From Escherichia coli (GTDB lineage Bacteria > Pseudomonadota > Gammaproteobacteria > Enterobacterales > Enterobacteriaceae), in the NCBI RefSeq assembly GCF_044647545.1, contig NZ_CP172818.1: DNA of 64,000 nucleotides; one strand, written 5' to 3'. The notes beneath the pieces are model-generated. The model ran no database searches, had not been told where the DNA came from, and saw only the letters and a program-made list of their open reading frames with translations. Both the position numbers and the translations under genes were made by a program. Numbering within the stretch: the stretch's first letter is position 1; the number at the start of each line of letters is the position of its first letter. This document shows, piece by piece, positions 28,830-43,126 of the stretch.

Positions 28830-29896
28830 TGAGAAAGATTCTGATAACAGGTGGTGCCGGGTTTATTGGCTCGGCGCTGGTGCGTTATATCATCAACGAA
28901 ACGAGCGACGCGGTGATAGTGGTCGATAAGCTGACCTACGCCGGAAATCTGATGTCGCTGGCACCGGTCGCGCAAAGCGAGCGCTTTGCCTTTGAGAAAG
29001 TTGATATCTGCGATCGGGCAGAACTGGCGCGCGTATTCACTGAGTATCAGCCAGACTGTGTCATGCATCTGGCAGCCGAAAGCCATGTTGACCGTTCTAT
29101 TGACGGCCCGGCAGCGTTTATTGAAACCAACATTGTCGGGACTTATACACTGCTTGAAGCGGCGCGGACTTACTGGAATGCGCTGACGGAAGATAAAAAA
29201 TCAGCGTTCCGTTTTCATCATATCTCCACCGACGAAGTATATGGTGACCTGCACTCGACGGATGATTTCTTCACCGAAACCACGCCGTATGCGCCGAGTA
29301 GCCCTTATTCCGCGTCAAAAGCCAGCAGCGACCATCTGGTGCGCGCCTGGCTGCGGACCTATGGTCTGCCGACGCTTATCACCAACTGCTCGAATAACTA
29401 CGGTCCTTACCACTTTCCGGAAAAACTGATCCCGCTGATGATCCTCAACGCGCTGGCGGGTAAACCGCTGCCGGTATATGGCAACGGGCAGCAAATCCGT
29501 GACTGGCTGTATGTGGAAGATCACGCCCGCGCGCTGTATTGCGTGGCGACCACCGGGAAAGTCGGTGAAACCTATAATATTGGTGGTCACAACGAGCGTA
29601 AGAATCTCGATGTTGTGGAAACCATTTGCGAGCTGCTGGAAGAACTGGCTCCGAACAAGCCGCACGGCGTGGCGCACTATCGTGACCTGATCACCTTTGT
29701 CGCTGACCGTCCGGGGCATGATCTGCGTTATGCCATTGATGCTTCGAAAATTGCCCGTGAACTTGGCTGGCTGCCGCAGGAAACCTTTGAAAGTGGAATG
29801 CGTAAAACGGTGCAGTGGTATCTGGCTAATGAAATCTGGTGGAAGCAGGTGCAGGACGGCAGCTATCAGGGCGAGCGTTTAGGTCTGAAAGGCTAA
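28829..29896 (+). CDS. rffG: dTDP-glucose 4,6-dehydratase
   Basis: [22 protein letters not shown]... 355 aa, SDR fold with YxxxK. Confidence 0.9.
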
Positions 29897-29914
29897 TTTT
29901 CAGCGGAGGCAAAC

Positions 29915-30796
29915 ATGAAAGGTATTATCCTGGCGGGCGGTTCCGGCACCCGATTGCATCCGATTACGCGCGGCGTATCGAAGCAACTGTTGCCGATTTA
30001 CGATAAGCCAATGATTTACTATCCGCTGTCGGTGCTGATGCTGGCCGGTATCCGCGAAATTCTCATCATTACTACGCCGGAAGATAAAGGTTATTTCCAG
30101 CGCCTGCTGGGCGATGGTAGTGAGTTCGGTATCCAGCTGGAATACGCCGAACAGCCCAGCCCGGACGGTCTGGCGCAGGCCTTTATCATCGGTGAAACCT
30201 TCCTCAACGGTGAACCTTCTTGTCTGGTGCTGGGCGATAACATTTTCTTCGGTCAGGGCTTCAGTCCGAAGCTGCGTCATGTTGCGGCGCGCACGGAAGG
30301 GGCGACAGTATTTGGCTATCAGGTAATGGACCCGGAACGCTTTGGCGTGGTGGAGTTTGACGACAATTTCCGCGCTATCTCGCTGGAAGAAAAGCCAAAA
30401 CAGCCGAAATCAAACTGGGCGGTGACCGGGCTTTATTTCTACGACAGTAAAGTCGTGGAGTACGCAAAGCAGGTGACGCCGTCGGAGCGTGGTGAACTGG
30501 AGATTACCTCCATCAACCAGATGTACCTCGAGGCGGGTAACCTGACCGTTGAACTGCTCGGGCGCGGATTTGCCTGGCTGGACACCGGTACTCACGACAG
30601 CCTGATTGAAGCGAGTACCTTTGTACAGACGGTGGAAAAACGCCAGGGCTTTAAGATTGCCTGCCTGGAAGAGATCGCCTGGCGTAACGGCTGGCTCGAT
30701 GACGAGGGTGTGAAGCGTGCTGCCAGTTCATTAGCGAAAACTGGCTACGGCCAATATCTGCTGGAGTTACTTCGTGCCCGTCCGCGCCAGTATTGA
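29915..30796 (+). CDS. rffH: glucose-1-phosphate thymidylyltransferase
   Basis: [39 protein letters not shown]... 293 aa. Confidence 0.9.
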
Positions 30797-31448
30797 GCCA
30801 CTAACCTGGGAAAACGCCTTCTTTGGTGTTAACAGCGCCATCGTGCGCATCACGACTGAAGCACCGCTCCTGACGTCAGACGCGTTAGCGCCGTGGTCAC
30901 GGGTGCAGGCCAAAATTGCGGCATCAAATACGGGTGAACTGGATGCCCTGCAGCAGCTGGGATTCTCCCTGGTAGAAGGTGAAGTTGATTTGGCGCTACC
31001 CGTGAACAATGTCAGTGATAGTGGTGCAGTAGTGGCACAAGAGACCGATATTCCCGCATTACGTCAGTTAGCCAGCGCCGCATTTGCGCAAAGCCGTTTT
31101 CGTGCGCCGTGGTATGCGCCTGACGCCAGCGGTCGCTTTTATGCACAGTGGATTGAAAATGCCGTGCGCGGCACCTTTGATCATCAATGTCTGATTTTAC
31201 GTGCGGCGTCCGGCGATATTCGCGGTTATGTCTCTTTACGGGAACTCAATGCGACAGATGCGCGAATTGGCCTGCTGGCTGGACGCGGTGCAGGTGCTGA
31301 GCTAATGCAAACGGCGCTAAACTGGGCGTATGCTCGCGGTAAAACAACTTTGCGGGTGGCGACCCAGATGGGCAACACCGCCGCGCTTAAACGATACATA
31401 CAAAGTGGTGCGAATGTAGAAAGCACCGCGTACTGGTTATACAGGTGA
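30774..31448 (+). CDS. wecD: dTDP-fucosamine acetyltransferase (GNAT)
   Basis: 224-aa ORF from GTG overlapping rffH 3' end ([27 protein letters not shown]...); exact start uncertain. Confidence 0.8.
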
Positions 31449-31452
31449 TCAC

Positions 31453-32583
31453 ATGATTCCATTTAACGCACCGCCGGTGGTGGGTACCGAACTCGACTAT
31501 ATGCAGTCGGCAATGGGTAGCGGCAAACTGTGTGGCGATGGCGGTTTTACCCGTCGCTGCCAGCAGTGGCTGGAGCAACGTTTTGGCAGCGCCAAAGTGT
31601 TACTGACGCCGTCCTGCACCGCTTCGCTGGAGATGGCGGCGCTGCTGCTCGATATCCAGCCTGGCGATGAAGTGATCATGCCGAGCTACACCTTTGTCTC
31701 CACCGCCAATGCATTTGTGCTGCGTGGCGCGAAAATCGTTTTTGTGGATGTTCGCCCGGACACCATGAACATCGACGAAACGTTGATTGAAGCGGCGATC
31801 ACCGACAAAACGCGCGTTATCGTGCCGGTCCATTACGCGGGTGTGGCCTGCGAAATGGACACCATTATGGCGTTGGCGAAGAAGCATAATCTATTTGTGG
31901 TGGAAGATGCCGCTCAGGGCGTGATGTCCACTTACAAAGGGCGTGCGCTGGGAACCATTGGTCATATTGGCTGCTTTAGCTTCCATGAAACCAAAAACTA
32001 CACGGCGGGCGGTGAAGGCGGCGCGACGCTGATTAATGATAAAGCGTTGATCGAACGAGCCGAGATCATCCGTGAAAAAGGCACTAACCGCAGCCAGTTC
32101 TTCCGTGGTCAGGTCGATAAATATACCTGGCGCGATATCGGCTCCAGCTATTTGATGTCCGATCTGCAAGCTGCGTACCTGTGGGCGCAACTGGAGGCAG
32201 CGGATCGTATCAACCAGCAACGTCTGGCGCTGTGGCAAAACTACTACGATGCGTTAGCGCCTCTGGCGAAAGCCGGGCGTATCGAGCTGCCGTCGATTCC
32301 CGATGGCTGCGTGCAGAACGCGCATATGTTCTACATTAAACTGCGGGATATTGATGACCGGAGCGCGTTGATTAACTTTCTGAAAGAAGCGGAAATCATG
32401 GCGGTGTTCCATTACATTCCGCTGCACGGTTGCCCTGCGGGAGAACGCTTTGGTGAGTTCCACGGTGAAGATCGCTACACCACCAAAGAGAGCGAGCGCC
32501 TGGTGCGCCTGCCGTTGTTCTACAACCTGTCGCCCGTCAATCAGCGCACGGTAATTGCGACCTTGTTGAACTACTTCTCCTGA
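31453..32583 (+). CDS. wecE: dTDP-4-amino-4,6-dideoxygalactose transaminase
   Basis: 376-aa DegT/DnrJ/EryC1-family aminotransferase MIPFNAPPVVGTELDYMQSAMGSGKLCGDGGF... Confidence 0.9.
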   Translation: MIPFNAPPVVGTELDYMQSAMGSGKLCGDGGFTRRCQQWLEQRFGSAKVLLTPSCTASLEMAALLLDIQPGDEVIMPSYTFVSTANAFVLRGAKIVFVDVRPDTMNIDETLIEAAITDKTRVIVPVHYAGVACEMDTIMALAKKHNLFVVEDAAQGVMSTYKGRALGTIGHIGCFSFHETKNYTAGGEGGATLINDKALIERAEIIREKGTNRSQFFRGQVDKYTWRDIGSSYLMSDLQAAYLWAQLEAADRINQQRLALWQNYYDALAPLAKAGRIELPSIPDGCVQNAHMFYIKLRDIDDRSALINFLKEAEIMAVFHYIPLHGCPAGERFGEFHGEDRYTTKESERLVRLPLFYNLSPVNQRTVIATLLNYFS

Positions 32584-32584
32584 T

Positions 32585-33835
32585 ATGTCGTTGGCAAAAG
32601 CGTCCTTGTGGACGGCGGCCAGTACACTGGTCAAGATTGGTGCCGGGTTACTGGTCGGTAAGTTGCTGGCGGTGTCATTTGGTCCTGCGGGGCTTGGGCT
32701 GGCGGCAAATTTCCGCCAGTTGATTACCGTGCTCGGCGTGCTTGCCGGGGCGGGCATCTTTAATGGCGTAACCAAATACGTTGCTCAGTACCATGATAAT
32801 CCGCAGCAGCTGCGCCGCGTGGTCGGCACTTCATCAGCGATGGTACTTGGCTTCTCTATGCTAATGGCGCTGGTTTTTGTGCTGGCAGCTGCGCCAATCA
32901 GCCAGGGATTGTTCGGTAATACCGACTATCAGGGGCTGGTGCGTTTAGTGGCGTTGGTGCAAATGGGGATCGCCTGGGGCAACCTGTTACTGGCGTTGAT
33001 GAAAGGCTTTCGCGATGCCGCAGGTAATGCGTTATCCCTGATTGTCGGCAGCCTGATTGGCGTTCTTGCGTACTACGTCAGTTACCGTTTGGGCGGTTAT
33101 GAAGGGGCGTTGCTGGGGCTGGCGTTGATTCCCGCGCTGGTGGTAATTCCTGCCGCCATCATGTTGATCAAGCGTGGTGTCATCCCGTTAAGCTATCTGA
33201 AACCCAGCTGGGATAACGGTCTGGCAGGGCAGTTGAGCAAATTTACGCTCATGGCGTTGATTACGTCGGTGACCTTGCCTGTTGCTTACATCATGATGCG
33301 TAAACTGCTGGCGGCGCAGTATAGCTGGGATGAGGTGGGGATCTGGCAAGGGGTGAGCAGTATTTCCGATGCCTACCTGCAATTTATTACGGCATCGTTC
33401 AGCGTATATTTGCTGCCCACGTTGTCGCGGCTAACGGAAAAGCGCGATATCACCCGGGAAGTGGTTAAATCGCTGAAATTCGTCTTACCGGCAGTGGCGG
33501 CGGCGAGTTTTACCGTCTGGTTGCTGCGTGATTTTGCTATCTGGCTGCTGTTGTCGAATAAATTTACCGCTATGCGCGATCTCTTTGCCTGGCAGTTAGT
33601 GGGTGATGTGTTAAAAGTGGGCGCTTATGTCTTTGGTTATCTGGTGATCGCCAAAGCGTCACTGCGGTTTTATATTCTGGCGGAAATCAGCCAGTTCACT
33701 TTATTGATGGTATTTGCCCACTGGCTAATCCCTGCGCATGGCGCACTGGGCGCAGCACAGGCCTATATGGCAACCTATATCGTCTATTTTTCTCTTTGTT
33801 GTGGCGTGTTTTTACTCTGGCGTAGGCGGGCATGA
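32585..33835 (+). CDS. wzxE: ECA lipid III flippase (Wzx)
   Basis: 416-aa polytopic membrane protein immediately after wecE. Confidence 0.85.
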
Positions 33836-34911
33836 CTGTACTGATTCACGTACTGGGATCGGATATCCCTCACCATAACCGAACCGTTCTGCGGTTTTTC
33901 AACGACGCGCTGGCCGCGACGAGCGAGCACGCGCGCGAGTTTATGGTTGTTGGCAAGGACGACGGCTTAAGTGATAGCTGTCCGGCGCTTTCTGTGCAAT
34001 TTTTCCCTGGGAAAAAATCGCTGGCGGAAGCGGTCATCGCGAAAGCAAAAGCTAACCGTCAGCAGCGTTTTTTCTTCCACGGTCAGTTCAATCCCAAACT
34101 GTGGCTGGCTCTGCTGAGTGGTGGCATTAAGCCCAGCCAGTTTTTCTGGCATATCTGGGGAGCAGACCTGTACGAACTTTCCAGTGGCTTGAGATATAAG
34201 CTTTTTTACCCGCTACGTCGCCTGGCGCAAAAGAGAGTCGGCTGTGTATTTGCCACCCGCGGTGATTTGAGCTTTTTTGCCAAAACGCATCCAAAGGTGC
34301 GGGGAGAACTGCTGTACTTCCCGACGCGGATGGACCCTTCTCTTAATACGATGGCGAACGATCGGCAATGTGAAGGGAAAATGACCATTCTGGTGGGCAA
34401 CTCCGGCGACCGCAGCAATGAGCATATTGCTGTCTTGCGCGCCGTTCATCAGCAATTTGGCGATACGGTAAAAGTGGTGGTGCCGATGGGATATCCGCCT
34501 AATAACGAAGCGTACATCGAGGAAGTTCGTCAGGCGGGGCTGGAGTTATTCAGCGAAGAAAATCTGCAAGTTCTGAGCGAAAAACTGGAATTTGACGCCT
34601 ATCTGACGCTACTTCGTCAGTGCGATCTTGGTTACTTTATTTTTGCCCGCCAGCAGGGCATTGGTACGCTGTGCTTACTGATTCAGGCGGGCATTCCTTG
34701 TGTGCTTAACCGGGAAAATCCGTTCTGGCAGGATATGACGGAACAACATTTGCCGGTGCTGTTTACTACCGACGATCTCAACGAGGATATTGTGCGTGAA
34801 GCGCAGCGCCAGCTGGCGTCGGTGGATAAAAACACCATTGCCTTCTTTAGCCCTAACTATCTACAAGGCTGGCAGCGGGCGTTGGCGATTGCCACCGGGG
34901 AGGTCGCATGA
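33832..34911 (+). CDS. wecF: TDP-Fuc4NAc:lipid II Fuc4NAc transferase
   Basis: 359-aa [36 protein letters not shown]...; start overlaps wzxE stop. Confidence 0.85.
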
Positions 34912-36260
34912 GTCTGCTGCAATTCAGTGGCCTTTTTGTTGTCTGGCTGCTCTGCACGCTGTTTATTGCCACGCTGACCTGGTTTGAGTTTCGCCGTGTG
35001 CGCTTTAACTTCAATGTCTTCTTTTCATTGCTGTTTTTGCTCACCTTTTTCTTCGGCTTTCCGCTGACCAGCGTGCTGGTATTTCGCTTTGATGTTGGTG
35101 TCGCGCCGCCAGAAATCTTGTTGCAGGCGTTGCTTTCTGCAGGCTGCTTCTACGCGGTTTACTATGTCACCTACAAAACCCGTCTACGCAAACGCGTTGC
35201 TGATGCACCGCGCCGTCCGCTGTTTACCATGAACCGCGTGGAGACCAATCTCACGTGGGTGATCCTGATGGGCATCGCGCTGGTAAGCGTCGGCATCTTC
35301 TTCATGCACAACGGCTTTTTGCTGTTCCGGCTTAATTCTTACAGTCAGATCTTTTCCAGCGAAGTCTCCGGCGTGGCATTAAAACGCTTCTTTTACTTTT
35401 TCATCCCGGCGATGCTGGTGGTTTATTTTCTGCGCCAGGACAGCAAAGCGTGGCTGTTTTTCCTCGTCAGCACGGTCGCCTTTGGCTTGCTGACTTATAT
35501 GATTGTCGGCGGCACTCGCGCCAATATCATCATCGCATTCGCTATCTTCCTGTTTATTGGCATTATTCGCGGCTGGATTTCGTTGTGGATGCTGGCGGCG
35601 GCGGGTGTGCTGGGGATTGTGGGCATGTTCTGGCTGGCGTTAAAACGCTATGGAATGAATGTGAGCGGCGATGAAGCGTTCTATACGTTTCTCTATCTCA
35701 CTCGCGACACCTTTTCACCGTGGGAGAATCTGGCGTTGCTGTTGCAGAACTACGACAACATCGACTTCCAGGGCCTGGCTCCCATTGTCCGCGATTTCTA
35801 TGTCTTTATCCCTTCCTGGCTGTGGCCGGGTCGCCCGAGTATGGTGCTGAACTCAGCCAACTACTTTACCTGGGAAGTGCTGAATAACCACTCCGGACTG
35901 GCGATCTCGCCTACGCTTATAGGCTCACTGGTGGTGATGGGCGGCGCGTTGTTCATCCCGCTCGGGGCGATTGTGGTTGGCCTGATCATCAAATGGTTCG
36001 ACTGGCTGTATGAGCTGGGCAACCGCGAGACTAATCGCTATAAGGCTGCGATATTACACAGTTTCTGCTTCGGGGCGATCTTCAATATGATCGTGCTGGC
36101 GCGTGAAGGGCTGGATTCGTTTGTCTCACGCGTGGTCTTTTTTATCGTGGTCTTCGGCGCATGTCTGATGATCGCAAAACTGTTGTACTGGCTTTTTGAA
36201 AGCGCCGGACTCATTCATAAACGTACAAAATCATCGCTCCGGACGCAGATTGAAGGATAA
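34908..36260 (+). CDS. wzyE: ECA polymerase (Wzy)
   Basis: 450-aa highly hydrophobic multi-TM ORF, overlapping wecF stop. Confidence 0.85.
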
Positions 36261-36262
36261 CA

Positions 36263-37003
36263 ATGAATAACACCACCACGGCACCGACCTATACACTGCG
36301 TGGCTTACAGTTGATTGGTTGGCGTGATATGCAGCACGCCCTCGATTATCTGTTTGCTGACGGGCAGCTTAAGCAGGGAACGCTGGTTGCCATTAATGCC
36401 GAAAAAATGCTGACCATTGAAGATAACGCCGAGGTCCGGGAGTTAATTAACGCTGCCGAATTTAAATATGCGGATGGCATCAGCGTTGTACGTTCAGTAC
36501 GTAAAAAGTACCCGCAGGCGCAGGTTTCCCGCGTTGCCGGGGCCGATCTCTGGGAAGAGCTGATGGCGCGCGCAGGCAAAGAAGGGACACCGGTATTTCT
36601 TGTGGGCGGTAAACCTGAAGTGCTGGCGCAAACTGAAGCTAAACTGCGCAACCAGTGGAATGTGAATATCGTTGGCAGTCAGGATGGTTATTTTAAACCC
36701 GAGCAGCGTCAGGCGCTGTTTGAACGCATTCATGCCAGCGGCGCGCAAATCGTCACTGTTGCGATGGGATCGCCAAAGCAGGAGATCTTCATGCGCGACT
36801 GCCGTCTGGTGCATCCGGATGCGCTGTATATGGGCGTTGGCGGGACTTACGATGTTTTCACCGGTCACGTAAAACGTGCACCGAAAATCTGGCAAACGCT
36901 GGGACTGGAGTGGCTCTACCGCCTGCTTTCGCAGCCGAGCCGCATTAAGCGTCAGCTTCGTTTGCTGCGTTATTTACGCTGGCACTACACCGGCAACCTC
37001 TGA
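36263..37003 (+). CDS. wecG: UDP-ManNAcA:lipid I ManNAcA transferase
   Basis: 246-aa WecB/TagA/CpsF-family glycosyltransferase; last gene of the ECA cluster. Confidence 0.85.
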
Positions 37004-37193
37004 TTTTCCTCTCTTTGTAAAGCGACGGAGTGGTCACTCCGTCGCCTGTCTGCTTTTTTATTACACAAAGCATTCAAATTTTTAATGCTTTATTTGCCAT
37101 TTCTCCTGAATTACGAAAACATTCGCAACACTCGATGTACCCATAACGATAACCGGTAACACCGGAAAGCATGCAAACACAACACGAGGATTT

Positions 37194-38579
37194 ATGGCAG
37201 ATAACAAACCAGAGCTACAGCGTGGGCTGGAAGCTCGACATATCGAACTCATCGCCCTGGGGGGCACCATTGGCGTCGGCCTGTTTATGGGGGCCGCCAG
37301 TACCCTGAAATGGGCCGGGCCATCTGTATTGTTGGCCTATATCATCGCCGGGCTGTTCGTCTTTTTCATCATGCGTTCAATGGGCGAAATGTTGTTCCTC
37401 GAACCGGTTACCGGTTCGTTCGCCGTTTACGCGCATCGTTATATGAGCCCGTTCTTTGGTTATCTCACCGCCTGGTCTTACTGGTTTATGTGGATGGCGG
37501 TGGGGATCTCAGAAATCACCGCCATTGGCGTTTATGTCCAGTTCTGGTTCCCGGAGATGGCGCAGTGGATACCCGCATTGATCGCAGTGGCGCTGGTGGC
37601 GTTGGCGAATCTGGCGGCGGTGAGGTTGTACGGCGAAATCGAGTTCTGGTTCGCGATGATCAAAGTCACCACGATTATCGTGATGATTGTCATTGGCCTG
37701 GGCGTGATTTTCTTTGGCTTTGGCAATGGCGGGCAGTCGATTGGTTTTAGCAATCTCACAGAGCATGGCGGTTTCTTTGCTGGTGGCTGGAAAGGGTTCC
37801 TGACCGCATTGTGTATTGTGGTGGCGTCCTACCAGGGCGTGGAGCTGATTGGCATTACTGCCGGTGAAGCGAAGAATCCGCAGGTGACGCTGCGCAGTGC
37901 TGTAGGCAAGGTGCTGTGGCGAATCCTGATTTTCTACGTTGGCGCGATTTTCGTTATCGTCACCATCTTCCCGTGGAATGAAATAGGCAGCAACGGTAGC
38001 CCGTTCGTACTGACTTTCGCCAAAATCGGCATTACCGCAGCGGCGGGCATTATCAACTTTGTGGTGCTGACGGCTGCGCTCTCTGGCTGTAACAGCGGCA
38101 TGTACAGTTGCGGACGTATGCTCTATGCACTGGCGAAAAACCGTCAGTTACCGGCGGCAATGGCGAAAGTTTCCCGTCACGGCGTACCGGTTGCGGGTGT
38201 GGCAGTATCTATTGCTATTCTGCTAATTGGCTCATGCCTGAACTACATCATTCCCAATCCGCAGCGTGTGTTTGTCTACGTCTACAGTGCCAGCGTGCTT
38301 CCGGGGATGGTGCCATGGTTTGTGATATTGATTAGCCAGCTGCGTTTTCGTCGTGCGCATAAAGCGGCAATTGCCAGCCATCCGTTCCGCTCAATCCTGT
38401 TCCCGTGGGCCAACTACGTAACAATGGCATTCCTGATTTGCGTTTTGATCGGCATGTACTTTAATGAAGATACGCGTATGTCGCTGTTTGTCGGCATCAT
38501 CTTTATGCTGGCGGTGACGGCGATTTATAAAATTTTTGGGCTTAATCGCCACGGTAAAGCGCATAAACTGGAGGAATAA
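37194..38579 (+). CDS. yifK: amino-acid permease (APC family)
   Basis: 461-aa 12-[41 protein letters not shown]... Confidence 0.85.
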
Positions 38580-38681
38580 GCAGCAAAACGCACAAACCGT
38601 AACCAAACGCGCAATTTATTTAAAAAGAGACTAGACAGAGGGGTGGGAAGTCCGTATTATCCACCCCCGCAACGGCGCTAA

Positions 38682-38758
<77 letters not shown>

Positions 38759-38815
38759 TTTAGTCCCGGCGCTTGAGCTGCGGTGGTAGTAATACCGCGT
38801 AACAAGATTTGTAGT

Positions 38816-38892
38816 GGTGGCTATAGCTCAGTTGGTAGAGCCCTGGATTGTGATTCCAGTTGTCGTGGGTTCGAATCCCATTAGCCACCCCA
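38816..38892 (+). tRNA. hisR: tRNA-His (GUG) with extra 5' G(-1)
   Basis: GGTGGCTATAGCTCAGTTGGTAGAGCCCTGGATTGTGATTCCAGTTGTCGTGGGTTCGAATCCCATTAGCCACCCCA. Confidence 0.95.
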
Positions 38893-38912
38893 TTATTAGA
38901 AGTTGTGACAAT

Positions 38913-38998
38913 GCGAAGGTGGCGGAATTGGTAGACGCGCTAGCTTCAGGTGTTAGTGTCCTTACGGACGTGGGGGTTCAAGTCCCCCCCTCGCACCA
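38913..38998 (+). tRNA. leuT: tRNA-Leu (CAG), class II; 86 nt here
   Basis: GCGAAGGTGGCGGAATTGGTAGACGCGCTAGCTTCAGGTGTTAGTGTCCTTACGGACGTGGGGGTTCAAGTCCCCCCCTCGCACCA; the C-run is 7 nt, leaving the 3' acceptor strand one nt short (see findings). Confidence 0.85.
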
Positions 38999-39040
38999 CG
39001 ACTTTAAAGAATTGAACTAAAAATTCAAAAAGCAGTATTT

Positions 39041-39117
39041 CGGCGAGTAGCGCAGCTTGGTAGCGCAACTGGTTTGGGACCAGTGGGTCGGAGGTTCGAA
39101 TCCTCTCTCGCCGACCA
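39041..39117 (+). tRNA. proM: tRNA-Pro (UGG)
   Basis: CGGCGAGTAGCGCAGCTTGGTAGCGCAACTGGTTTGGGACCAGTGGGTCGGAGGTTCGAATCCTCTCTCGCCGACCA. Confidence 0.95.
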
Positions 39118-39123
39118 ATTTTG

Positions 39124-39147
39124 AACCCCGCTTCGGCGGGGTTTTTT
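39124..39147 (+). terminator. terminator of the argX–hisR–leuT–proM operon
   Basis: AACCCCGC-TTCG-GCGGGGTT followed by TTTTTGTTTT. Confidence 0.8.
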
Positions 39148-39263
39148 GTTTTCTGTGCATTTCATCACTCTCCGTTCGCAATAAACGCCCGTAATAACTC
39201 ATTGTCCTACGGTATGATTTCGCCCTTAACGTATTGAAGGATGACTTCAGGCAAGGAGCGACC

Positions 39264-40499
39264 ATGCTGCAACAGGTTCCAACGCGTGCTTTTCATGTGA
39301 TGGCGAAACCGAGCGGTTCCGATTGTAATCTGAACTGTGACTACTGTTTTTATCTCGAAAAACAATCCCTTTACCGCGAAAAGCCAGTCACGCATATGGA
39401 CGATGACACGCTGGAAGCGTATGTCCGTCACTATATCGCTGCCAGCGAAACCCAAAACGAAGTGGCTTTTACCTGGCAGGGCGGCGAACCAACGTTACTC
39501 GGGCTGGATTTTTACCGCCGAGCCGTGGCGCTACAGGCGAAATATGGTGCTGGCAGGAAGATAAGTAACAGCTTCCAGACTAACGGCGTTCTGCTTGATG
39601 ACGAATGGTGTGCATTTCTGGCAGAAAATCATTTTCTTGTTGGGTTATCGCTGGATGGTCCGGCTGAGATCCACAATCAATATCGCGTGACCAAAGGCGG
39701 CAGACCAACGCATAAGCTGGTGATGCGTGCCCTGACGCTCCTGCAAAAACATCATGTCGACTATAACGTGCTGGTCTGCGTAAATCGCACCAGTGCGTTA
39801 CAACCTTTGCAAATCTATGATTTTCTGTGTGATGCAGGCGTTGAGTTTATCCAGTTTATTCCGGTGGTCGAGCGCCTGGCTGATGAAACGGCTGCTCATG
39901 CTGGACTTAAGCTACATGCTCCCGGCGATATTCAGGGCGAACTGACGGAATGGTCGGTACGCCCCGATGAGTTCGGTGAATTTTTGGTGGCGATATTCGA
40001 CCACTGGATCAAACGCGACGTCGGCAAGATTTTCGTGATGAATATCGAATGGGCGTTTGCCAATTTTGTCGGTGCGCCAGGAGCGGTTTGCCATCATCAG
40101 CCAACCTGTGGGCGCTCGGTGATTGTTGAACACAACGGCGACGTTTACGCCTGCGATCACTATGTTTATTCGCAATATCGACTGGGGAATATGCTTCAGC
40201 AGACAATTGCAGAAATGGTAGATTCCCCGCAACAGCAGGTGTTTGGTGAAGATAAATTTAAGCAGTTACCAGCGCAGTGTCGCAGTTGTAACGTGTTAAA
40301 AGCATGTTGGGGAGGCTGCCCGAAACACCGCTTTATGCTCGATGCCAGCGGCAAACCGGGGCTGAATTATTTGTGTGCCGGGTATCAGCGTTATTTCCGC
40401 CATCTACCGCCATATCTTAAAGCAATGGCTGATTTGCTGGCGCACGGTCGTCCGGCCAGCGACATTATGCAGGCGCATTTGATGGTGGTGAATAAGTAG
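39264..40499 (+). CDS. aslB: anaerobic sulfatase-maturating enzyme homolog (radical SAM)
   Basis: MLQQVPTRAFHVMAKPSGSDCNLNCDYCFY... (CxxxCxxC radical-SAM motif); 411 aa from this start. Confidence 0.85.
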   Translation: MLQQVPTRAFHVMAKPSGSDCNLNCDYCFYLEKQSLYREKPVTHMDDDTLEAYVRHYIAASETQNEVAFTWQGGEPTLLGLDFYRRAVALQAKYGAGRKISNSFQTNGVLLDDEWCAFLAENHFLVGLSLDGPAEIHNQYRVTKGGRPTHKLVMRALTLLQKHHVDYNVLVCVNRTSALQPLQIYDFLCDAGVEFIQFIPVVERLADETAAHAGLKLHAPGDIQGELTEWSVRPDEFGEFLVAIFDHWIKRDVGKIFVMNIEWAFANFVGAPGAVCHHQPTCGRSVIVEHNGDVYACDHYVYSQYRLGNMLQQTIAEMVDSPQQQVFGEDKFKQLPAQCRSCNVLKACWGGCPKHRFMLDASGKPGLNYLCAGYQRYFRHLPPYLKAMADLLAHGRPASDIMQAHLMVVNK

Positions 40500-40640
40500 A
40501 AATCGGCGGCCGCCTGCGGTTGATTGCCGGATGCGGCGTGAACGCCTTATCCGGCCTACAATCCTTGCAAATTCAATAAATTGCAGCGTTCTGTAGGCTG
40601 GATAAGATGCGTCAGCATCGCATCCGGCAAAGGCAGATCT
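40500..40640. repeat. REP/BIME cluster
   Basis: Units such as GCCGGATGCGGCGTGAACGCCTTATCCGGCCTACA and TGTAGGCTGGATAAGATGCGTCAGCATCGCATCCGGCA in inverted orientation between convergent aslB and aslA. Confidence 0.8.
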
Positions 40641-40656
40641 CAGCGATAGCGCCGGC

Positions 40657-42312
40657 TTAATCAGATTTAATCTGCGCGCGTGGTGGATATTTTTTCAGGA
40701 TCTCCATATACGCGTGCATTTCGGTCTGTAGCGGTACACCCATTGGGATATGGCGCACGCCGATGGAGTCGCTTTCCTGCGGATCGGTGTACAGGTTAAA
40801 CACCGACGATCCCGCCGTTTGCATTACTGTGCCGGTGAATCCACCCTGATACCCGCTCTGTGTATACGCGTACGGTTGCTGGATCAGGACGTGATACTTG
40901 AACTCATCCATACGCACAGCAGAAAGTTTACCGTTGAGGAAGTAGTGCTCGGCCTTACGGTTAGACTGACCATTTGTTCCCAGGAAGAAAGATGTCTGGT
41001 CCACACCATCGATAAAGGTGGTTTTCGGTACTAAATTCGCTACTTTCGCCCCAGGATGCCCCGCCAGATCCAGCGCCGTAGGGAAGAGATCCGCCAGATC
41101 GACAATGCCGTCAGATTTACGCGGTTGGATCATGCCTTTCCAGTAAACGAAGGTTGGCACACGAACGCCGCCTTCCCATGTAGAACCTTTCGCACCGCGG
41201 AACGGCGTGCGACCGTGCGGCGGAACTTCGGCTTCCGGACCGTTATCAGAGGTGAACACAATCAGCGTGTTATCAAGCTGACCGTTTTTCTCCAGTGCTT
41301 TATACAGATTGGCGAAGATATCGTTCATCTCCACCATGCAGTCGCCGTAAGAGGTGCGCGCCGGAGAGCTACCCGCATATTTCGCATTTGGGTAGTTATC
41401 GAAGTGACAGCCACGAGTGCCGTAATAGAGGAAGAAAGGCTTATCGCTCTTCGCCATCTTGTCGAGGAACTTAACGCCATATTCCATCCAGCGTTGATCC
41501 AGGTCTTCCATATATTTCGGCGTAATGTCGGCAATGGCTTCCTGTTCACCGCCGCGCACGGCATGAACGTCATCTTTGCTGAACGGCAGTTTTTGGATGT
41601 ATTCAGAACGATCCGGGCTCAGGGCGACTTCCGGGTTGACGTGAACATCACGCCATTCGGTATACATATCGGATACCGAGTTAAAGCCGCGGAAATCATC
41701 AAAGCCAACGTTCTGCGGCTGCGACTCTTTGTTTTCCCCCATATGCCATTTCCCGATGGCCTGAGTGACGTAGCCCTGATCGTGCAGCAACTGCGGCAGA
41801 GTGGTTAACCCTTGCAGACCGCCCGGTTGCCCGTACATTGGCGGCATCAGAATGCCGTGGTGGATGGAGTATTGTCCGGTAAGAATCGTGGCGCGGGTTG
41901 GGGAAGAACTCGGTTGAGAATACGCCGAAGTTAAAATCAGCCCCTGGCTGGCAACGGCGTCGATATCTGGTGTAGGGTTACCCACCGCCACGCCGCCGCC
42001 GTTAAAGCCAACATCCATCCAGCCCACATCATCCAGCAAGAAAACAACCACGTTCGGTTTCTTACCGGTTTTTTTCTCAAGTTCTGCCAGCTTCTGCTGG
42101 GTTTCTTTGTCTTGTGCAGGATGCTGCATCACCGGCATCATGTTGTCGGCAATAGTGGTCGCCGGTTTAACCAGATACTGGTTTGGGTGATCGTATCCGG
42201 CAAAGCCTTTGCGTGCGGTGGCGGTTGACGGGGTATCTGCTGCGTTGGCCATGAGTGGAAGAGCGGCGGCGACAGCTACAACAAGAAGTTTGGGTGAAAA
42301 CGAAAATTCCAT
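40657..42312 (-). CDS. aslA: arylsulfatase-family protein
   Basis: 551-aa ORF with signal peptide ([24 protein letters not shown]) and sulfatase active-site region ([11 protein letters not shown], which contains the CxPxR-type signature as SxPxR). Confidence 0.85.
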
Positions 42313-42721
42313 GCAAAATGCTCCGGTTTCATGTCGTCAAAATGTTGACGTAATTAAGCATTGATAATTGAGATCCCTCTCCCTGACAGGATGATTGCAT
42401 AAATAATAGTGATGAAAATAAATTATTTATTTATCCAGAAAATGAATTGGAAAATCAGGAGAGCGTTTTCAATCCTACCTCTGGCGCAGGTGATATGTAA
42501 GGCGGTGATGTTATATCGCGTTGATTATTGATGCTGTTTTTAGTTTTAACGGCAATTAATATATATGTTATTAATTGAATGACTTTTATTATTCATTATA
42601 TATATATGTAGAATCGTGCGCAGGAGAAATATTCACTCAGGAAGCAAAGAGGATTACAGAATTATCTCATAACAAGTGTTAAGGGATGTTATTTCCCGGT
42701 TCTCTGTGGCATAATAAACGA

Positions 42722-42928
42722 GTAGATGCTCATTCCATCTCTTATGTTCGCCTTAGTGCCTCATAAACTCCGGAATGACGCAGAGCCGTTTACGGTGCTT
42801 ATCGTCCACTGACAGATGTCGCTTATGCCTCATCAGACACCATGGACACAACGTTGAGTGAAGCACCCACTTGTTGTCATACAGACCTGTTTTAACGCCT
42901 GCTCCGTAATAAGAGCAGGCGTTTTTTT
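42722..42928 (+). ncRNA. glmZ: small regulatory RNA GlmZ
   Basis: GTAGATGCTCATTCCATCTCTTATGTTCGCC...GCTCCGTAATAAGAGCAGGCGTTTTTTT matches my recollection of E. coli GlmZ (~207 nt), with sigma70-like -10 (CATAAT) upstream and intrinsic terminator. Confidence 0.85.
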
Positions 42929-43028
42929 ATGACCGGATAAAGAACTGGTTACGTCGCTCCTTCATCTTCTTTAACTCTTACAAAACCCAAAGAATTCTTC
43001 ACCTTTCATTTCCCTATTCTTTTTCTCC

Positions 43029-43126
<98 letters not shown>

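Follow-up and report, generated by a model that had tools for sequence, protein, structure and literature searches.

The tRNA-Leu(CAG) gene and its neighbours

The window, a 64,000-nt stretch of Escherichia coli contig NZ_CP172818.1, carries a cluster of tRNA genes that was delimited with ARAGORN and cmscan and by comparison with K-12 MG1655 (Table 1). The cluster is flanked by thrP and aslB, and its gene order and spacers are those of MG1655. Three of its members, argX, hisR and proM, have identical scores against the Rfam tRNA model (RF00005) in the two genomes. Read directly, leuT spans G38913 to A38998 and has the hallmarks of tRNA-Leu(CAG), namely the anticodon CAG, a long variable arm, the discriminator A73 and an encoded CCA, all at the same positions as in MG1655 (ARAGORN and direct read).

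Table 1. Positions of the tRNA genes, of the sites within leuT and of the low-quality stretches in the window.
Feature	Position	Strand	Remarks
tRNA cluster argX-hisR-leuT-proM	38682–39117	+	ARAGORN, cmscan, comparison with MG1655
argX	38682–38758	+	score equal to that of the MG1655 copy
hisR	38817–38892	+	score equal to that of the MG1655 copy
leuT, tRNA-Leu(CAG)	38913–38998	+	86 nt with encoded CCA; reference 87 nt
A5 of the acceptor stem	38917	+	non-canonical A5.C68 in the 8-C reference; unpaired in the 7-C version (cmscan alignments)
C homopolymer in leuT	38984–38990	+	7 long (reference 8); direct read, homopolymer scan, alignment
proM	39041–39117	+	score equal to that of the MG1655 copy
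Corrupted low-complexity stretch	42961–43106		includes a 55-A run at 43030–43084
Homopolymer-rich junk	56990–57655		about 670 nt; small indels from 56716

The 3’ end of leuT reads GGGGG-TTCAAGT-CCCCCCC-TCGC-A-CCA. By direct read and by a homopolymer scan, its C run holds exactly seven bases. The first five pair with GGGGG as the 3’ side of the T stem, and the rest begin the 3’ strand of the acceptor stem. That strand is CCTCGC, as the initial annotation had counted: six nucleotides opposite the seven of the 5’ strand, GCGAAGG. The annotation had also put E. coli tRNA-Leu(CAG) at 87 nt with eight C, and this is how leuT is annotated in MG1655 (b3798, 3982606–3982692). When the two genes were aligned, a single gap appeared, in the C run, which bears out the description of the difference as a one-base contraction of the homopolymer. 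The window copy thus matches its MG1655 counterpart in its location between thrP and aslB, in its neighbouring tRNA genes and spacers, and in every base outside the run, while it has 7 C, 86 nt and an unpaired A5 in place of 8 C, 87 nt and A5.C68. A reference leuT with seven C and a standard stem, which the annotation had named as the outcome that would speak against an anomaly, is not what MG1655 has.

Model scores and folding of the 86-nt gene

Scoring with an Infernal model, one of the checks that the initial annotation had proposed, separated the two copies. In cmscan against RF00005 the window leuT scored 40.8 bits (match 38913–38995) and the MG1655 copy 48.5 bits, 7.7 bits more; the window copy still passes the Rfam gathering threshold of 29 bits. 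In the window alignment a base is deleted opposite A5, within the 3’ acceptor strand, and the gene therefore fails to form a seven-layer acceptor stem with seven nucleotides per strand. ARAGORN moved its leuT call in the window one base upstream, to 38912–38997, with the anticodon at position 36; in the 87-nt reference the anticodon is at position 35.

The reference acceptor stem does not itself consist of seven Watson-Crick pairs. Its fifth layer, A5.C68, is non-canonical, the only such layer in the cmscan alignment of the MG1655 gene, and because of this mismatch the contraction turns an A.C layer into a bulged A5. The A5.C68 layer is common to all four E. coli copies of the gene and to the other enterobacterial copies that we saw.

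We calculated the energies of explicitly specified cloverleaves. The sequence with eight C gave -30.0 kcal/mol and that with seven C and a bulged A5 gave -29.5 kcal/mol. The cost of the contraction in pairing energy is small, about 0.5 kcal/mol, because the lost C sat in the A.C mismatch. An alternative register for the seven-C sequence, with seven acceptor layers and a shortened T stem, gave -26.9 kcal/mol. Without constraints, the 86- and 87-nt sequences folded into one common minimum-energy structure that is not a cloverleaf. Judging from general tRNA geometry, the loss of one layer from the acceptor/T-arm helix, if real, would impair function.

Length of the C run in relatives and in public genomes

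The best RefSeq matches to the window belong to the ECONIH1 / FDAARGOS_497 / Ecol_881 group; among the complete E. coli genomes of RefSeq, the best match for positions 41000–63999 has 99.0% identity. Both ECONIH1 and FDAARGOS_497 carry a leuT of 87 nt, and no relative outscores these two, so the seven-C run is not shared by the close relatives. Over the 13,961 nt from 29001 to 42961 the window is 99.993% identical to ECONIH1, and the missing base in the leuT C run is the sole difference.

The homopolymer scan found only one G/C homopolymer of seven or more bases within positions 1–56700, and this is the C run of leuT, which makes it the single site in these 57 kb that is most prone to an error of length. 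The other runs in the same interval (143 of five bases, 40 of six bases and 16 A/T runs of seven to eight bases) all agree with the relatives. General homopolymer noise in the window is therefore rejected.

To place the seven-C run among E. coli at large, we used as query an 82-nt sequence comprising the 3’ half of leuT and its unique downstream spacer, and compared it with complete E. coli genomes, 5,404 of which have the locus. At 100% match, eight C were found in 5,099 genomes (94.4%), seven in 199 (3.7%) and nine in 18 (0.3%). All ten metagenome contigs that carry the leuT locus have eight C, as expected if seven C is an error, though ten contigs are too few to bound the 3.7% rate. Three further genes, leuQ, leuP and leuV, encode the same tRNA with the same eight-C run and served as internal controls. 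Seven C were present at leuQ in 153 of 4,738 genomes (3.2%; query across the leuQ-leuP junction) and at leuV in 113 of 4,567 (2.5%; query with the 3’ flank).

Outside E. coli, the enterobacterial genera that were sampled usually have eight C as well. Among one-genome-per-species representatives the seven-C form occurs in four assemblies only, usually in several copies. Enterobacter sp. EA-1 has it in all three tandem copies, of which ARAGORN finds one. In Klebsiella michiganensis DSM 25444, leuT has seven C and the tandem trio has 7, 8 and 7. Several tRNA-Leu(CAG) copies of Kluyvera YDC799 have seven C, and one of them also has G4 instead of G5. Kosakonia sacchari SP1 shows one seven-C copy, located where the sequence examined ends. 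Among the E. coli genomes, the close relatives and the species representatives, we found no lineage with seven C as an inherited state.

The contractions cluster by assembly. Among the matches listed, at least 14 of the 30 records with seven C at leuT also have seven C at leuQ or leuV (1.7 expected, P=2e-10), and at least 16 of the 60 with seven C at leuQ have it at leuV as well (1.5 expected, P=1e-12); the expected counts assume that the events are independent, and the observed counts are lower bounds. Many of the seven-C records come from one accession series, CP0272xx–CP0277xx, with strains named 20xxC-xxxx. Five of the 15 nine-C records among the matches listed come from a single wastewater project. 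In the literature we found no genome announcement that names the platform on which the CDC strains were sequenced; the affected public assemblies were presumably produced by long-read-only sequencing. Six assemblies of O145 strains that belong to a single accession series (RM9873-C1, RM12367-C1, RM9154-C1, RM9467-C1, RM8995-C1 and RM10425-C1) have seven C at leuV throughout; in three, leuQ has seven C as well. Either a batch artefact or a clonal allele may lie behind this.

Laboratory strains descended from eight-C ancestors are also affected, and the copy that is hit differs among them. DH5alpha (CP025520) has seven C at leuT only, as the sole gap in 50 kb, with three 87-nt genes at leuQPV. 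In NEB 5-alpha the contraction is at leuQ, and in DHB4, the MG1655 re-assembly CP009685 and the B strain C3029 it is at leuV. DTU-1, the clearest example, has seven C at leuT, leuQ and leuV. Over 50,000 nt around leuT, this strain shows no mismatch to MG1655 and one gap, the base in the C run. A mutator lineage, which could have produced co-occurring contractions, is rejected for DTU-1 by this lack of mismatches, and three independent slippages in major CUG-reading tRNA genes of an otherwise unchanged strain are not credible. The rates at leuQ and leuV, the clustering by assembly and the affected laboratory strains are all explained if consensus callers lose one base in eight-base G/C runs.

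Origin of the seven-C run in the window

Two other stretches of the window bear on the quality of the assembly. At 42961–43106, low-complexity sequence stands in place of about 570 nt carried by close relatives. A genuine 55-A tract would be extraordinary in an E. coli chromosome, and this stretch is most likely an assembly artefact. It lies directly after the glmZ terminator; the relatives have here, between aslA and hemY, a gene for a hypothetical protein of 196 aa that is missing in K-12. The second stretch, at 56990–57655, contains CCCCCCCCCCC, C9–11, A9–12 and T20, and 19 runs of seven or more bases lie within 56700–57700. At the same place ECONIH1 and FDAARGOS_497 have a normal gene of the SAM hydrolase/halogenase family and a spacer before yigE. 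The stretch looks like low-quality consensus. A 35-mer specific to junk sequence of the window was not found in metagenome contigs, and for the products of two junk-specific ORFs no record was found. Locally, then, the assembly cannot be relied upon, and the site that deviates in leuT is the one most prone to a miscall of length.

Taken together, we consider that the seven-C run of leuT very probably reflects a homopolymer-length error of sequencing or assembly, and not a biological defect. Consensus callers drop bases most often in long G/C homopolymers, above all with long-read-only data and flow-based chemistries. The organism would then carry an ordinary leuT with the normal eight-C run, of which one C would have been under-called when the genome was sequenced or assembled; we infer that the process behind the recurrent contractions in public assemblies acted here too. 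The change has the form of such an error: it alters by one base the length of a long homopolymer (8 C to 7 C), it is not inherited, given the 87-nt leuT of ECONIH1 and FDAARGOS_497, it recurs at identical sequences (leuT, leuQ and leuV) grouped by assembly and not by lineage, and the same assembly has independent signs of low quality in the 55-A run and the junk at 56990–57655. As in homopolymer consensus errors of public assemblies, a single base is missing where the region has its longest G/C run, and such deletions recur across unrelated assemblies and in paralogous copies within one. Unlike in those cases, the window has no further homopolymer errors apart from the two junk stretches. Outside these stretches it is very clean, and so free of general homopolymer noise, which speaks against an error, as does the fact that the eight-G.C run is a documented hot spot of real indels at which cells tolerate the alteration of one copy out of four. 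The initial annotation had offered a sequencing error or a real defect in one of the copies. This pair of choices holds up, and the contraction of paralogous copies in the same assemblies, its absence in close relatives and the corrupted stretches in the window favour the first.

The real defect would be a replication slippage of -1 in the eight-C run, yielding an 86-nt tRNA with six acceptor pairs and a bulged A5; we regard it as unlikely. Such a tRNA would probably be poorly processed or poorly functional, and the cell would tolerate its loss, as the same tRNA is also made from leuQ, leuP and leuV. Slippage at this site has a clear precedent. [quoted passage not shown] The four copies are affected to the same extent, and the lines that carry the mutations are viable (PMC8510543). 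In site and type of change the hot spot agrees with the window: the run, which supplies the 3’ side of the T stem and the first bases of the acceptor strand, gains or loses a single base. However, those are verified mutations in repair-defective lines (PMC8510543), and the window shows no sign of a mutator, since the 14 kb around the site are identical to a relative. That the rest of this 14-kb neighbourhood is free of errors is consistent with a real mutation, as are the cost of only about 0.5 kcal/mol for a deleted C that lay in an A.C mismatch and the score of the seven-C sequence above the Rfam threshold (40.8 against 29 bits).

Several observations weigh against slippage. A real allele might be shared by related isolates, but the closest relatives all lack the seven-C run. 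The conservation of eight C, which 94% of E. coli share and which is also usual in the other genera sampled among the enterobacteria, argues for selection on every copy. The rate of 3–4% at which assemblies have seven C is explained by artefacts at the level of the assembly. This artefactual background far exceeds any plausible frequency of a real allele, so the prior that any single seven-C call is real is small. Gross corruption of sequence elsewhere in the window also counts against slippage.

That the gene is instead a natural, functional length variant, refolded to a seven-layer acceptor stem with, for example, a 4-bp T stem, has in our judgement next to no chance of being correct, since the register can be drawn for the seven-C sequence but costs about 3 kcal/mol (-26.9 against -29.5 and -30.0), disrupts the conserved T stem of 5 bp and its 7-nt loop, and belongs to a form that is inherited in no lineage seen.

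Read as a homopolymer-length error, the contraction has little biological weight, and its practical use is as a quality flag. None of this is novel: leuT, the sequence of its reference copy and the fact that its C run is unstable were known before. The eight-C run of the four tRNA-Leu(CAG) genes appears to be miscalled in roughly 2.5–4% of ‘complete’ E. coli assemblies per copy, and for this reason 86-nt tRNA-Leu annotations should not be taken as defective genes. Given the grossly corrupted stretches in the source assembly, other oddities there need equal caution. Should the seven C be real after all, which we doubt, the window would hold a recent slippage allele, encoding an 86-nt tRNA-Leu(CAG) in which A5 is bulged and the acceptor helix shortened. 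It would then be a minor natural case of decay in a redundant gene: at a known slippage hot spot, one of the four copies for the major leucine tRNA would have been inactivated or weakened.

Other differences between the window and its relatives were also seen. Two concern G runs: the window has G6 at 6017, in yifB, and at 1327, in 23S rRNA, where FDAARGOS_497 has G5 (at 6483 and 1794, respectively), and yifB is annotated as frameshifted in FDAARGOS_497. Both are homopolymer errors in FDAARGOS_497, a reference-grade public assembly, and not in the window. Around 59593–59739, the window lacks a segment of about 1.6 kb that follows corA in the relatives (about 30100–31830 in the coordinates of the relative locus) and contains DUF943 and YPO3983-family genes and a partial duplicate of corA. 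An IS4 in yigE of FDAARGOS_497 is likewise missing from the window. The corA-adjacent segment and the IS4 look like ordinary strain-to-strain variation.
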